Below are positions 20,238 through 64,000 of a stretch of 64,000 nucleotides of DNA, piece after piece (the stretch's first letter is position 1; every line of letters starts with the position of its first letter). The stretch lies in contig JAIRYP010000015.1 in assembly GCA_031267755.1 (NCBI GenBank), positions 142,538 to 206,537 on the forward strand, written 5' to 3'. The notes under the pieces are model-generated. The model made no database searches. It was not told where the DNA came from and saw nothing but the letters and a program-made list of their open reading frames with translations. The stretch is from Clostridiales bacterium. Its GTDB lineage: Bacteria > Bacillota > Clostridia > Monoglobales > JAIRYP01. A program made the translations under genes and the position numbers.

Positions 20238-21137
20238 ATGAGTGATGTAAATTTGAATAAAGATAAAAAAGAGTTTTTAGAAAATAAAGAAAAATATCCT
20301 GAATTATATTTAGATACTATAAAAGATGGAATTGTTTTAAAAGAAGATTGTTATGATATACTTAATATTTCTATAAATTGTTGTCATCATATTTGGAACT
20401 TGTCTGAAGGTCATGAAATTGACGAAATTAATTTCATAACTTCTGGAAATAACAGTGTTTTTTTTCAAAGGAAAGAAGTATGTGGTAAAAATTGTTTTTT
20501 TGTTTGTTTTAAAAGTGCCTCTACAATTTTAGAATGGTTTAGATGTTTTAGTTTTTTTAAAAAACCTTGTAAGTATTTAAAATTTAAAAAAGTTCATGGA
20601 GGTATTTTAAAAAGATTTTTAGAACTTGAAGAGGAATTTTTAGAAGTTTTTGAACAACATTATGTAAAAGGAGATAAAATTGTAGTTTTCGGTCATAGCT
20701 TGGGCGGTCCGCTTTCATTATTTGCACATCTTTCACTTTTGGAAAAAGGTTATGAAGATATTAATAATTTCTCATTTAATAGTCCTTTTTTTTTAACGAA
20801 AGAAGCAAAAAAAGAATTGGGAAAAATAATAAACGAGTATGAGTTTAATAGATTTTTCAGAGCGAATGATTTGATTTCAAATTTTCCCAAGTTTGGCGAT
20901 AAAAAAAGTTTATTAAATCGTTTCTTTAGAAGATTATTTAATTTTATTAAAAGATTATTGAAATTTAAATATTTTGGTCGAAAAATTAAAATACGTGAGG
21001 ATAAGACAGGTTCTTCTATAGAGTCACATAGAAAACTTATAACAAGAGAAGATTTTTTAGAAAAAAATTTTAAAGTACAAAATATCTCGAAATTTGTTAA
21101 AAAAACAGAAGCTCAAAAACTTGCGATGTCTTTTTAA
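20238..21137 (+). CDS. class 3 (fungal/eukaryote-type) lipase family protein
   Basis: Lipase_3 layout: FVCFKSASTILEW, then VHGGILKRF, then the nucleophile elbow VVFGHSLGGPLS (GHS at 20691-20699), then the Asp segment RANDLISNFP, then a His candidate SIESHRKL. No signal peptide. Confidence 0.7.
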   Translation: MSDVNLNKDKKEFLENKEKYPELYLDTIKDGIVLKEDCYDILNISINCCHHIWNLSEGHEIDEINFITSGNNSVFFQRKEVCGKNCFFVCFKSASTILEWFRCFSFFKKPCKYLKFKKVHGGILKRFLELEEEFLEVFEQHYVKGDKIVVFGHSLGGPLSLFAHLSLLEKGYEDINNFSFNSPFFLTKEAKKELGKIINEYEFNRFFRANDLISNFPKFGDKKSLLNRFFRRLFNFIKRLLKFKYFGRKIKIREDKTGSSIESHRKLITREDFLEKNFKVQNISKFVKKTEAQKLAMSF

Positions 21138-21172
21138 ATAAAGGTTTTATTTTTTTAATTGGAGAAAATAAT

Positions 21173-21997
21173 ATGAATATATTTCATGCAATTTTTTTGG
21201 GTTTTGTTCAAGGTTTTACTGAATTTTTTCCCGTTAGCAGTTCTGGTCATTTAACTTTATTTCAAGAAATATTTGGGTTAAAAATTAAAAATAGAGTTTT
21301 ATTTGACATATTTCTTCATTTTGGAACTTTATTATCAGTTATTATAGTTTTTAGAAAAGATATTGTTGAACTTATTAAAGAGTTTTTTTATTTTTTAGGT
21401 GATTTCATAAAATTTAATCCTAAAGTTAATAAAAATTATAATAGACGTTTGATAATGATGCTTATTAGTTCGGCTGTACCTTTAGTTTTTGTTGCTATAT
21501 TTAAGAAGTTTTTTGAAGAAATTTTTGATAATTTAAAGATAGTTGGAATGTCTTTAGTGATAACTGGAATTTTGATTTGGTTTATTGATAAAGTAGTTTA
21601 TGGCGATAAGACTTCCAGTAACGCGTCATTTTTTTCGGCATTTTTAGTTGGTCTTTCACAAGTTATTGCTGTAATTCCGGGATTATCTCGCTCAGGTATT
21701 ACGATATTTTCGGCAGTACTTTTGGGTTATAAAAAAAAGTTTGCTATAAAATTTTCGTTTTTGATGTCAATAATCGCGATATGTGGCGCCATGGTTTTGG
21801 AGTTGTCACATGGGTTTAGTTTTATTAACATACTGAAACCACTTGAAGTTTTTACATATTTTTTGTCTGTAATTGCATCTTGTATAAGTGGAATTTTTGC
21901 TATTAAGTTTTTTACGGTGCTTATGGAAAAAAATAAATTTCATTATTTTTCATATTATTGCTTAATCGTTGGAACAATCGTTACATTATACAGATAA
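21173..21997 (+). CDS. uppP: undecaprenyl-diphosphate phosphatase
   Basis: Motifs: FPVSSSGH and PGLSRSG. Polytopic membrane protein. Confidence 0.95.
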   Translation: MNIFHAIFLGFVQGFTEFFPVSSSGHLTLFQEIFGLKIKNRVLFDIFLHFGTLLSVIIVFRKDIVELIKEFFYFLGDFIKFNPKVNKNYNRRLIMMLISSAVPLVFVAIFKKFFEEIFDNLKIVGMSLVITGILIWFIDKVVYGDKTSSNASFFSAFLVGLSQVIAVIPGLSRSGITIFSAVLLGYKKKFAIKFSFLMSIIAICGAMVLELSHGFSFINILKPLEVFTYFLSVIASCISGIFAIKFFTVLMEKNKFHYFSYYCLIVGTIVTLYR

Positions 21998-62591: not shown

Positions 62592-62696
62592 GAAAATGAA
62601 TTTTGATTATAAAATTAAGTTGAAAATGTGATACAATTAACAAAGGGAATTATAAAGTTTTTATAAATTACATAAATGACTGCGAGTTGTTAAATT

Positions 62697-64000
62697 ATGA
62701 TTTTTGATCAAGATTATTTTAATGAACATTTTTTGGAAATTTGTGATCGCGAAAATCATATTTTTGTTTTTCCAGAAGAAGCAGATGAAATAGATGAAGC
62801 AGTTTTTCATCGTCTTAGACTTTTAGAGTTAATTACATTTTTAAGTGATTTGAAGAAAGTTAAATATGAACAAGACAGATTTGATGATGTTTGTCTTGCT
62901 TTTCCTAAAGAGCATTTTCCTGATTTGGAGTTAGAAATAAGTTTTGAACCTCTTGTTTGTTCTGGAAAAAATATTTTAGAATGGCTTGAATCATCTTTTA
63001 ATAGAGAAAGTCGGACTTTTTTATTTTCGCGTCAATTTAACTCGGATGTTATTTCAAGATTACTTGAATTCTTACAATATTATGAGGATATTTTTATTTT
63101 TCTTGTTTTGCTTAAAGAAGTTAGAATGAATCGTAATTTATATAAAAAGTATGAAAATTTATTTAAATTGTTTAGAACTTTTAATCCTGATGTTGTGTTT
63201 AAAGATAATAAAGGAAAGCCTTTATATGATATTGAATCGCCTTATGATCATGTTATAAATGATTTTTTCGCTCATGATTCTCATTCAGATGATTCAGAAG
63301 ATTTAAGCAATTTACATGATGATTTTCATGAAGATCATTTGTTTTCAAAACCAGACGATGATCCTCATTTTGAAGATCATTTGTTTTCAAAACCAGACGA
63401 TGATCCTCCTTCGGTTTTAGGTAGTGCTGAAGTTTTAAATACTACAGAGGTTCGGCCTACAAGCTCGTGTTCTTCTGAACTCTCAAAACCCCCATTAGAT
63501 TTTGATTTTGTTCAACCTATTTCAAAACTGCCCTCAAAATCACCATTAGATTGCAATTTTAACAAAATTTTTTTGAAAATTAACAATGAACAAAGAGATA
63601 CTTTTCTAATAAAGTTAGTTATTTTGAATTTTTACGGATATCCATTTATTAGTAATAAAGAAAGACGTTTGTTAAAGTTTTTTGTAAAATGTCTTGAAGA
63701 CGAAAAAAAAAATAATAGTATAAGGATTGATCTTGAACTTTTCGCTAATGAAATTTTACAAATACCAAGAAGATGTTCATCTTATAATTGGCTTACTATG
63801 TTTCATGGTTTGTTTATTGAATTTCGTTATAGGATGCAAAAGAAATTAGATTCTAGAAATTTTGTACTCAGATTTTTTTATTATATTTATGATGTGTGTT
63901 GTGATAGTTGGCGAGTAATCACAAAAAAGCGTCATGATTCTAACGCTATATTCGAAGAATTAAATATTCCGCACATGGACTATATTGAAGAATTGCAAAG
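62697..64000 (+). CDS. hypothetical protein, 3'-partial (runs off the window; not in the ORF track)
   Basis: Frame is open from ATG 62697 to the window end (>434 codons). Contains a perfect 36-bp direct repeat and an acidic/His-rich linker. No motif recognised. Confidence 0.6.
   Translation, partial: MIFDQDYFNEHFLEICDRENHIFVFPEEADEIDEAVFHRLRLLELITFLSDLKKVKYEQDRFDDVCLAFPKEHFPDLELEISFEPLVCSGKNILEWLESSFNRESRTFLFSRQFNSDVISRLLEFLQYYEDIFIFLVLLKEVRMNRNLYKKYENLFKLFRTFNPDVVFKDNKGKPLYDIESPYDHVINDFFAHDSHSDDSEDLSNLHDDFHEDHLFSKPDDDPHFEDHLFSKPDDDPPSVLGSAEVLNTTEVRPTSSCSSELSKPPLDFDFVQPISKLPSKSPLDCNFNKIFLKINNEQRDTFLIKLVILNFYGYPFISNKERRLLKFFVKCLEDEKKNNSIRIDLELFANEILQIPRRCSSYNWLTMFHGLFIEFRYRMQKKLDSRNFVLRFFYYIYDVCCDSWRVITKKRHDSNAIFEELNIPHMDYIEELQ
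63330..63407 (+). repeat. perfect 36-bp direct repeat, period 42 bp, in frame
   Basis: gaagatcatttgttttcaaaaccagacgatgatcct occurs at 63330-63365 and 63372-63407, encoding EDHLFSKPDDDP twice. Confidence 0.9.

Follow-up and report, generated by a model that had tools for sequence, protein, structure and literature searches.

Eukaryotic-like-domain and orphan genes in the genome of an uncultured endospore-forming member of the Clostridia

Genes and sequence features of the window

The window analysed here is a 64-kb stretch of a MAG contig with a GC content of 27.8% and a normal coding density (0.88–0.91), the genome of the source organism having approximately 28% GC. It keeps sporulation, cell-wall, glycolysis and folate-synthesis genes, together with pyk, pgi, tpiA, gpmI, ackA and rpe, and the presence of SpoIIIAF, SpoIIIAH, Coat_F (cotF), DpaA and DpaB (dpaAB) marks the source as an endospore former by gene content, as a preliminary description of this DNA had proposed. 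Several housekeeping proteins score under the NCBIfam equivalog cutoffs, and ThrS lacks a TGS domain. The preliminary description also took the organism to be reduced, for which these 64 kb give no demonstration. The best relatives of GpmI are 61–63% identical and labelled as Clostridia, Eubacteriales or Oscillospiraceae MAGs, and those of MnmG are only 64% identical. Accessory genes occupy 34% of positions 20238–64000, and the whole inventory given earlier (a lipase, a bilobed orphan, helical paralogues, a repeat protein with a G10 tract, a USP-fold peptidase, an LRR protein and a repeat-bearing orphan) is present. Genes are on the forward strand unless stated otherwise.

The gene at 56272..57759 encodes a USP/UCH-type cysteine peptidase-like protein of 495 aa (UCH), which matches Pfam PF00443 (MEROPS C19) with 50.9 bits against a gathering cutoff of 23.9, residues 149–449 spanning profile positions 2–238 of 254. 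Both the Cys box (N-x-G-x-x-C; NSGTDC, with Asn152 and Cys157) and the His box (GHYT with His427 and NYNDS with Asp443) are intact, and in an alignment to USP36, USP5 and USP15 the residues Cys157, His427 and Asp443 match the catalytic residues of human USP36. A hydrophobic stretch (residues 22–58) and an acidic linker precede the catalytic domain (149–449). A word-based database search returned the query itself only and, as it has no close database relative, UCH is not an orthologue of any known one beyond word-level similarity. Its single-sequence AlphaFold2 model (pLDDT 35) is too low in confidence to judge the fingers-palm-thumb USP fold. Judging from its motifs, UCH is a candidate for a catalytically intact USP-type deubiquitinase; the ubiquitin-type substrates of USP-fold enzymes (MEROPS C19) are eukaryotic.

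Two further genes encode eukaryotic-like domains. The class-3 lipase-like protein (299 aa; 20238..21137) matches PF01764 (Lipase_3) with E=3.5e-13 and 50.1 bits against a cutoff of 22, and its residues GHSLGG form the nucleophile elbow (GxSxG) with Ser154; hydropathy revealed no N-terminal hydrophobic signal, and the exact sequence was found in this MAG only. The BspA-type LRR_5 protein (684 aa; 60537..62591) matches PF13306 with 3e-60 and 202 bits in four LRR_5 stretches, followed by a helical C-terminal third, and has 161 family-level relatives at E<=1e-5, the best of them 22–31% identical. BspA and most bacterial BspA-type relatives are targeted to the surface by a signal peptide, lipobox or anchor. 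None of these three, nor a transmembrane segment, was found in the protein described here, whose N-terminal hydrophobic peak is 0.89 versus 2.13 in P0131, a typical relative with a lipobox/lipoprotein signal.

Three paralogues, related to each other with BLASTP values of 1e-6 to 1e-19, form a helical ORFan family: member 1 (335 aa; 33155..34162), member 2 (338 aa; 34367..35383, from an ATG that follows AGGAGG, the mechanical ORF opening at 34331) and member 3 (361 aa; 35547..36632), with a terminator-like hairpin at 36658–36678, 3' of member 3. The AF2 model of member 1 is all-helical (pLDDT 63), with long helices at residues 110–176 and 182–236, and a structural search gave no match at E<0.02, retrieving generic coiled coils only. 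Searched against 1.84 billion cluster representatives, the family profile returned only the three paralogues. Repeat searching identified a 142-nt upstream element (34208..34349) that carries a TTGACT-16-TATAAT promoter and has a second, 93% identical copy at 36678–36819, 5' of a 641-aa orphan (36839..38764). This orphan was considered as a further member of the family and rejected, as it has no detectable similarity to the paralogues. An upstream element of 155 nt is duplicated as well. Within the largest island lies a divergent phage-type pair (38929..39978), composed of a 143-aa phrog_11237 protein on the reverse strand (38929–39360; PHROG E=3e-13) and an XRE/HTH_26 regulator on the forward strand (39616–39978; HTH_26 E=2e-5), neither of which had a tblastn match in the phage collection.

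The remaining orphans comprise a hairpin-type protein, repeat proteins and small ORFans. By hydropathy, the 335-aa orphan at 27218..28225 contains a 55-residue bilobed hydrophobic domain (residues 187–243) between a helical N-domain and a Lys/Asp/Glu-rich tail; a sigma-70-like promoter with an 11/12 match lies at 27101–27129, and no Pfam, PHROG or PADLOC family scored above threshold. The 729-aa orphan at 40723..42912 (ATG 40723 after GAGGTG; mechanical ORF from 40714) has three internal repeats of ~38 aa, two of the three pair scores being reached by 0/300 shuffles, and matched no Pfam, PHROG or PADLOC family and no phage sequence by tblastn. An in-frame G10 tract (41576–41585) encodes a WGGG insertion in its repeat 1 and is a candidate slipped-strand switch. 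At the edge of the window, an orphan of at least 434 aa (62697..64000, running off the end), also without a Pfam, PHROG or PADLOC family, carries a perfect 42-nt x1.9 tandem duplication at 63329–63408, with units EDHLFSKPDDDPHF. Upstream of positions 20238–64000, four small ORFans lie between mnmG and thrS (12379..14206), and here a G8 tract (12947–12954) frameshifts and truncates ORF 12649; with G7 or G10 in its place, a 176-aa product would result whose ends match the neighbouring paralogue. The G8 at 12947 and the G10 at 41576 are the sole runs of G or C of at least 7 in the 64 kb, in which 0.044 G8 runs and 0.0013 runs of at least 10 G are expected by chance. The lengths of both tracts are those of a MAG consensus, in which an assembly error is possible.

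Placement, leaders and composition of the accessory genes

According to the preliminary description, every orphan occupies a point of interruption in a conserved operon, which proved overstated, as an accessory gene is found in only ~5 of ~12 block junctions. Several of the partners then invoked (rpmE, tmk and eno) do not occur in the 64-kb window, rlmN and ackA are not conserved neighbours, and eno follows gpmI in just 3 of the 10 relatives inspected. Moreover, no orphan is present at three operon breaks: ricT|tpiA (where relatives, but not this genome, have pgk ahead of tpiA), ackA|gatB (gatCA lacking) and pknB|rpe (rsgA lacking). Accessory genes do not appear to target operon breaks; their position between conserved blocks would be explained by extensive rearrangement of the backbone, the junctions being the places that tolerate insertions.

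The absence of Sec signal peptides held for all accessory proteins except UCH. In the others the N-terminal hydrophobic peak does not exceed 1.3, against 2.1–2.9 in exported controls and 2.38 in UCH, whose residues 22–58 could, from their hydrophobicity, be a signal anchor. Should this stretch adopt a hairpin topology, the catalytic domain would be kept on the bacterial cytoplasmic side, which counts against a host-directed function. As for the similar leaders reported earlier, no common extended leader was found outside the paralogues, but Ser or Ala is enriched at position 2, occurring in 11/18 accessory versus 2/33 housekeeping genes (Fisher p=4e-5), or in 7/14 when counted per family (p=0.0014). 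No export or secretion machinery is encoded in the 64-kb window. An FtsK-type protein was considered as an export component and set aside as a DNA translocase.

The accessory genes have a GC of 0.288 and a GC3 of 0.17, compared with 0.294 and 0.20 in housekeeping genes, and are regarded as old residents because their composition matches. The expectation that the orphans are not widely conserved was borne out by the database searches with the helical family, UCH and the LRR protein described above, and exact-sequence clusters of the accessory genes have 1–2 members each, all from one 240-kb MAG contig. Strong sigma-70-like promoter matches lie 5' of some accessory genes only, and the scan gave no strong match upstream of the UCH, LRR and lipase genes.

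Likeness to known systems and a possible role

Among known systems, the nearest counterpart is the endosymbiotic 'small genome clade' of Clostridia ("Acutalibacteraceae": Ca. Improbicoccus / Paraimprobicoccus; Takahashi et al., ISME J 2023, PMC10579323). Its members have 27.5–39% GC (27.5% in RsTa-C01), no enolase and a fragmented glycolysis, carry an ATP/ADP translocase as a hallmark, and encode UCH, LRR_5 and Lipase_3 domains of eukaryotic-like type, frequently in proteins that lack a signal peptide, with coiled-coil domains listed too; RsTa-C01 has UCH and several LRR_5 genes (PMC10579323). Rumen ciliates have yielded comparable MAGs of low GC, from Ruminococcaceae and Acutalibacteraceae (bioRxiv 10.1101/2025.07.29.667580). 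The domain toolkit found here (a USP look-alike, a BspA-type LRR, a class-3 lipase and orphans) is already known from clostridial symbionts inside termite-gut protists, whose GC content is 27.5–33% and which are without enolase (PMC10579323). The window shares with the clade a low GC content and scattered UCH, LRR_5 and Lipase_3 genes and, within its 64 kb, has no eno beside gpmI and no pgk beside tpiA; the nearest named relatives of its GpmI include Oscillospiraceae MAGs. It differs in retaining genes for sporulation and for folate synthesis, as well as pyk, pgi, ackA and rpe. Sporulation goes unmentioned in PMC10579323, and the ATP/ADP translocase is absent from the 64-kb window.

Resemblances to other systems are partial. 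USP-type and LRR domains in dispersed, lineage-specific, fast-evolving genes recall the effectors of Legionella, Chlamydiae and Ca. Amoebophilus, and the orphan at 27218, with its bilobed hydrophobic domain of ~55 residues, is like chlamydial Inc proteins, in which such a domain has 40–60 residues and which enter a host vacuole membrane by type III secretion; this is a resemblance and not membership. Those bacteria are Gram-negative and export by T3SS, T4SS or eCIS, none of which was seen in the window and none of which, to our knowledge, is expected in a Firmicute. Some clostridial toxins leave the cell without a signal peptide, C. perfringens CPE by mother-cell lysis and C. difficile TcdA/TcdB through the TcdE holin. 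The organism studied here is likewise a spore-forming member of the Clostridia with proteins that lack Sec signals, for which a host-directed role is our inference, but its proteins have no sequence similarity to these toxins, and neither a holin nor a sporulation-specific promoter was identified adjoining the accessory genes. Homopolymer phase variation is known from the poly-G genes of Campylobacter, Neisseria and Haemophilus, and the G8 and G10 tracts likewise lie within the coding sequence of non-housekeeping genes that are variable and paralogous. One of these genes is frameshifted and would be repaired by the loss of one G or the gain of two; we know of no established case of poly-G switching in Clostridia.

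The source is an uncultured, fast-evolving, endospore-forming member of the Clostridia with 28% GC that, by analogy, most likely has a eukaryotic partner (a gut protist or an animal). The host association put forward in the preliminary description survives in this analogical form, since UCH, LRR_5 and Lipase_3, mostly without signal peptides, occur as in termite-gut protist endosymbionts (PMC10579323, Tables S10 and S12). As an overall explanation we favour, at about even confidence, a eukaryote-associated spore former whose accessory repertoire is old, lineage-restricted and diversifying in place. The repertoire would consist of three proteins with eukaryotic-like domains (USP-type, LRR_5 and lipase) and of ORFan coiled-coil, membrane-hairpin and repeat proteins, diversifying by tandem gene duplication, duplication of promoter-bearing upstream elements and short tandem repeats, with poly-G slippage as a probable further route. 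The targets of the USP, LRR and lipase proteins may be host ubiquitin, host proteins or host lipids. Proteins without Sec signals might reach the host through lysis of the cell or mother cell, a holin-type route or a system encoded outside the window, and UCH might alternatively be Sec-inserted by its N-terminal anchor. Against this explanation count the genes that the window still has for sporulation, the cell wall, glycolysis, acetate kinase and folate, in which it differs from described obligate endosymbionts, the occurrence of LRR_5 and Lipase_3 domains in free-living bacteria too, and the lack of a secretion system in the window.

Intracellular or tightly host-bound Clostridia are rare and have been documented only recently. 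Deubiquitinase-like, LRR and lipase genes beside intact-looking sporulation genes could show the path of gut Firmicutes from commensal to symbiont or parasite of protists or animals, as well as their transmission. Through its USP-type protein, a Gram-positive bacterium might interfere with the ubiquitin of its host, and the poly-G tracts are candidates for simple-sequence phase variation in Clostridia. Should the source belong to the described clade, the value of these observations is incremental.

Alternative explanations

The accessory genes might instead serve the bacterium itself, as coat or exosporium proteins made in the mother cell, coiled-coil organisers of cytoskeleton or membrane, and a USP-fold protease whose substrates are bacterial. 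We consider this unlikely but arguable: the organism forms endospores and has cotF, spoIIIA and dpaAB nearby, coat proteins are expected to lack signal peptides, the helical proteins resemble generic coiled coils only, and a hairpin-type anchor would hold UCH inside the cell. It is harder to reconcile with the eukaryotic nature of USP-fold substrates and with the same domain triad in intracellular Clostridia (PMC10579323); that the best promoters are sigma-70-like and not recognisably sporulation-specific argues weakly in the same direction, given a scan of sigma-70 type.

A more specific form of host association is more doubtful still. A spore-keeping, eukaryote-associated lineage outside or basal to the small genome clade, with the same USP, LRR_5 and Lipase_3 toolkit, would occupy an intermediate position, with free-living gut Clostridia on one side and obligate energy parasites on the other. 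In such a lineage the ORFans would be poly-G phase-variable, and the Ser/Ala bias at position 2 would mark a common and hitherto unrecognised feature of exported or host-exposed proteins.

Segmented filamentous bacteria (SFB; Candidatus Savagella / Arthromitus) are low-GC, reduced, host-attached, endospore-forming Clostridia, and the preliminary description had pointed to such a lineage. An SFB-like filament attached to epithelium, with the accessory genes as attachment or immune-modulation factors, would agree with the 28% GC, spore formation and host-type domains. We regard it as improbable, as no SFB-labelled sequence is among the named best relatives of GpmI and MnmG, the nearest being gut Clostridia and Oscillospiraceae MAGs at 61–64% identity, and as the combination of USP, LRR_5 and Lipase_3, not tied to SFB, fits the protist-endosymbiont clade better.

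We give equally little credence to the islands being defence islands, or the decayed remains of mobile elements or prophages, with the orphans as cargo. The phrog_11237 protein and XRE regulator in the largest island and the position of islands at block junctions speak for such an origin, to which are opposed a host-like composition, 0 tblastn matches in 50,697 phage records, the lack of any PADLOC family above noise among the accessory genes, and the lack of integrase, transposase, tRNA-flanking repeats and phage structural genes in the window. Finally, eukaryotic contamination or chimeric binning, conceivable given the MAG origin, is a very remote explanation for the eukaryote-like genes, which alternate with bacterial housekeeping genes along a single contiguous contig of 240 kb, share their GC and GC3, and have AGGAGG ribosome-binding sites and no introns.

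Eukaryotic-like proteins and their possible role

The accessory genes of the window, which occur in this lineage only, had been presented in a preliminary description as a recurrent series of eukaryote-like, host-interaction-type and contingency-type genes, and that observation is largely real. The class-3 lipase, the USP-fold peptidase and the BspA-type LRR protein that it named are all present. The lipase (Lipase_3, 20238-21137) has a GHSLGG motif with Ser154, and the peptidase (56272-57759, hereafter UCH) matches PF00443 at 50.9 bits, its Asn152, Cys157, His427 and Asp443 aligning to the Cys and His boxes of human USP36; the AF2 model of the UCH domain, with a pLDDT of 35, was too low in confidence for use. 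The third protein (60537-62591) matches LRR_5 at 202 bits, and its relatives are family-level only, at 22-31% identity. P0131, the best LRR match, was suspected to be a relative because its contig also has 28% GC, and was rejected: it uses genetic code 4 and carries a lipobox, and is therefore Mollicutes-like and unrelated. On that contig (L052, 1-11701), where TGA encodes Trp, the LRR_5 lipoprotein adjoins an S10 ribosomal operon, and the proteins called in this operon are of unusually great length (L22, 208 aa; L23, 219 aa; L29, 162 aa; S17, 176 aa).

Endosymbiotic Clostridia that live in parabasalids of the termite gut were characterised by Takahashi et al. (PMC10579323), along with a broader animal-gut "small genome clade" of 0.86-1.4 Mb and 27.5-39% GC, which is without enolase and carries "eukaryotic-like" genes. 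The domain list of this clade includes Lipase_3, Peptidase_C19 and coiled-coil, and RsTa-C01 (27.5% GC) has one UCH gene, transcribed and without signal peptide, while signal peptides are lacking from four of its five LRR_5 genes (PMC10579323). Similar low-GC genomes of Ruminococcaceae and Acutalibacteraceae appear in a preprint on rumen ciliates (bioRxiv 10.1101/2025.07.29.667580). Since the same UCH, LRR_5 and Lipase_3 domains occur in the clade, the triad in the window repeats a published pattern; a eukaryotic-like toolkit in Clostridia is of a kind already known, to which the window adds one example. Judged by its gene content, the window would work like the small genome clade, membership of which is a matter of an ATP/ADP translocase and of phylogenomic placement. 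It differs in keeping sporulation genes, pyk, pgi, ackA, rpe and folate synthesis, whereas the described endosymbionts keep less, and in having a UCH with no detectable close relative, the homologue search having returned only UCH itself. The points of remaining interest are the occurrence of sporulation together with a eukaryotic-like toolkit, the poly-G tracts described below, and a Ser/Ala bias at the N-terminus.

Two sets of catalytic motifs, one for a USP-type peptidase and one for a serine lipase, occur in the accessory genes, together with LRR_5 repeats and a membrane-hairpin plus coiled-coil architecture. We infer that this repertoire would act on a eukaryotic host, mainly because USP-fold enzymes have substrates of the eukaryotic ubiquitin family and, secondly, because of the precedent in endosymbiotic Clostridia. 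The alternative, that the accessory genes have cell-intrinsic or spore-surface roles, can be set beside the sporulation genes of the window; given the two arguments for host action, we consider such roles unlikely. The window holds no secretion system. Some clostridial toxins leave the cell by lysis or through a holin, and by analogy this would be a plausible route for the signal-less proteins. That none of the proteins has a Sec signal peptide, as had been claimed, held in a simple hydropathy test for all but UCH, whose residues 22-58 equal in hydrophobicity the signal anchors found in exported proteins of this window that served as controls. UCH itself may be Sec-inserted via an N-terminal anchor.

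The source organism

The window has a GC content of 27.8% and its genes lie mostly on the plus strand. In an exact-sequence look-up, seven accessory proteins fell on a single contig (240,496 bp) from a "Clostridiales bacterium" MAG (MDR1392287-MDR1392316, LBJ09_03770 onward). The housekeeping genes, checked against NCBIfam and Pfam, are in window order spoIIIAF, spoIIIAH, pyk, cotF, a VanW/G5 wall protein, pgi, a DnaC/IstB-type loader and mnmG; thrS (without TGS domain), lepB, rplS, tRNA-Met, cvpA, rho and uppP; an FtsK/SpoIIIE DNA translocase, a PMCA-type Ca-ATPase, holB, ricT, tpiA and gpmI; folP, folB-folK, addB, dpaA, dpaB and then a class A RNase P RNA; and serA, rpe, a PASTA kinase, stp, rlmN, ackA and gatB. 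This verified gene set marks the source as a member of the class Clostridia that has a cell wall and forms endospores, and the earlier view of it as a spore former is borne out by spoIIIAF, spoIIIAH, cotF, dpaA and dpaB.

Some of these proteins score well under the NCBIfam equivalog cutoffs (UppP 181 against 218-284, HolB 71 against 340, AddB 403 against 904), which would fit fast evolution. The best GpmI match among 185,579 species-representative genomes is 63% identical, a JGI metagenome scan gave no match closer than 61%, and the top identity of MnmG, a very conserved protein, is 64% among 5.8 billion proteins. The lineage is without a sequenced close relative in the collections searched. 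The top GpmI matches come from gut MAGs bearing the labels Clostridia, Eubacteriales or Oscillospiraceae; the suggested likeness to segmented filamentous bacteria found no support in them, nor did any other tie to that group appear, and an epithelial lifestyle of their type is improbable. P0011 (761 aa, L051 5223-7508) was rejected as an MnmG relative, being a duplicated or chimeric MnmG in which about 130-140 residues of the N-terminal half are doubled and query residues ~176-316 align twice; the repeat is either a genuine duplication or an assembly chimera.

Three further features of the backbone were noted. In the stretch 14206-16435, ThrS (570 aa) begins at its SAD domain, and the 516 nt upstream hold neither an ORF nor a T-box at the Rfam gathering threshold. 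Between spoIIIAH and pyk, two small ORFs (132 and 101 aa) on the minus strand at 1776-2791 run opposite to their neighbours and match no family. From 44000 to 56000 GC skew is strongly positive over plus-strand genes and falls to ~0.05 or below zero precisely where blocks of genes run on the minus strand (addB; serA to rlmN), and so follows the coding strand, either through a G-rich coding strand or through recent inversion of those blocks.

Arrangement and N-termini of the accessory genes

The proposal that each accessory gene sits where a conserved operon is interrupted is where the finding is weakest, and its framing was overstated. rpmE, tmk and eno are absent from the whole window, and the "interruptions" are therefore rearrangement junctions, not insertions into intact operons. 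Directly after gpmI, eno is found in three of ten inspected relatives (L023, L027, L036); an unrelated gene follows in five, and the first ORF is unidentified in L016 and L022. Nor are rlmN and ackA a conserved pair, UCH lying in the divergent gap upstream of a conserved rlmN-stp-pknB-rpe block. Moreover, three clear operon breaks are without an accessory gene: ricT/tpiA (30199-30547), where tpiA rather than pgk follows ricT (pgk precedes tpiA in 10 of 10 inspected relatives, its identity confirmed in two); pknB/rpe (52178-52234), without rsgA; and ackA/gatB (58990-59040), without gatC or gatA. Of the roughly twelve block junctions between 20 and 64 kb, about five hold accessory genes by our own count. 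A fair statement is that these genes are scattered, singly or as one 10-kb cluster, among the conserved blocks of a backbone that has been heavily rearranged.

The similar leaders ascribed to several of these proteins are a weak trait: outside the paralogues there is no extended common leader, but Ser/Ala is enriched at position 2. A Met-Ser or Met-Ala start is found in 11 of the 18 accessory genes but in only 2 of the 33 housekeeping genes (p=4e-5; counted by family, 7/14, p=0.0014), the latter beginning mostly with Met-Lys, Met-Asn or Met-Ile.

Orphan families and their origin

The other genes of the description are likewise all at their stated places, among them an orphan with a bilobed hairpin (27218-28225, hydrophobic residues 187-243), a repeat protein (40723-42912) that has three repeats of ~38 residues and an in-frame G10 tract (41576-41585), and a last orphan (from 62697) with a perfect 42-nt tandem duplication. 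The helical paralogue family stands with three members (hel1 at 33155, hel2 at 34367 and one at 35547), 24-29% identical (BLASTP 1e-6 to 1e-19); the 641-aa ORF 36839 was rejected as a fourth, giving no BLASTP or HMM signal and having only an upstream element in common. The family model consists of long helices (AF2, pLDDT 63). A RhoGAP assignment was discarded, with 16 bits in Pfam against a threshold of 24.5 and with generic coiled coils as the only PDB matches of the model (best E=0.02). That the orphans are lineage-specific was confirmed: the helical profile retrieved its own three members only among 1.84 billion cluster representatives, UCH found itself alone, LRR relatives do not exceed 31%, and the accessory proteins form 90%-identity clusters of one or two sequences each.

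The shared 142-nt element, 93% identical at 34208-34349 (before the second paralogue) and 36678-36819 (before ORF 36839), comprises a terminator-like hairpin region and a consensus-like promoter, TTGACT-16-TATAAT. Preceding two ORFs with unrelated proteins, it resembles a promoter cassette that can move. A strong promoter of its own for every accessory gene was not upheld, such matches occurring for 27218, hel1, hel2, 36839, 40723 and 38929 and not for UCH, LRR or lipase; an invertible promoter ahead of the repeat orphan was likewise rejected, the inverted repeats there all being low-complexity and AT-rich.

There is little chance that the accessory genes are mobile-element or defence cargo. 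Against Pfam, PHROGs and PADLOC the ORFans gave nothing above noise, save a divergent phage-type pair at 38929-39978 (a phrog_11237 protein of unknown function and an XRE-family HTH regulator), near which there is no integrase and no structural phage gene. A prophage or defence island was rejected, with no PADLOC match above noise and no phage tblastn match. Both genes of the pair have promoter matches of 11/12 or similar.

The listed accessory genes make up 34% of 20238-64000, at a coding density of 0.91. Their GC and GC3 match those of the housekeeping genes and AGGAGG ribosome-binding sites are present; they are therefore native, long-resident bacterial genes and not a recent transfer, and contamination is very improbable. 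Their evolution proceeds in place by tandem gene duplication, duplicated upstream elements, short tandem repeats and, probably, the two poly-G tracts.

Apart from the G8 and G10 tracts, the window has no run of G or C that reaches 7; the analytically computed chance expectations are 0.044 (G>=8) and 0.0013 (G>=10). The G8 tract (12947-12954), upstream of the region first singled out (20238-64000), lies inside a small ORFan and frameshifts it; a tract of G7 or G10 would give back a protein of 176 aa with an MSGT start and a ...PREFIPSSMKPSQK end like its neighbour. This tract supports the idea of contingency-type orphans, although homopolymer length in a MAG consensus may be an assembly error. 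Four small ORFans, starting MAG, MSGT, MSGT and MAG, lie between mnmG and thrS (12225-14723). The two MSGT genes, one of them frameshifted by G8, have cores that are not alignable, flanked by upstream and start regions that are 88% identical (155 nt) and by C-terminal and downstream regions that are 84% identical (98 nt).
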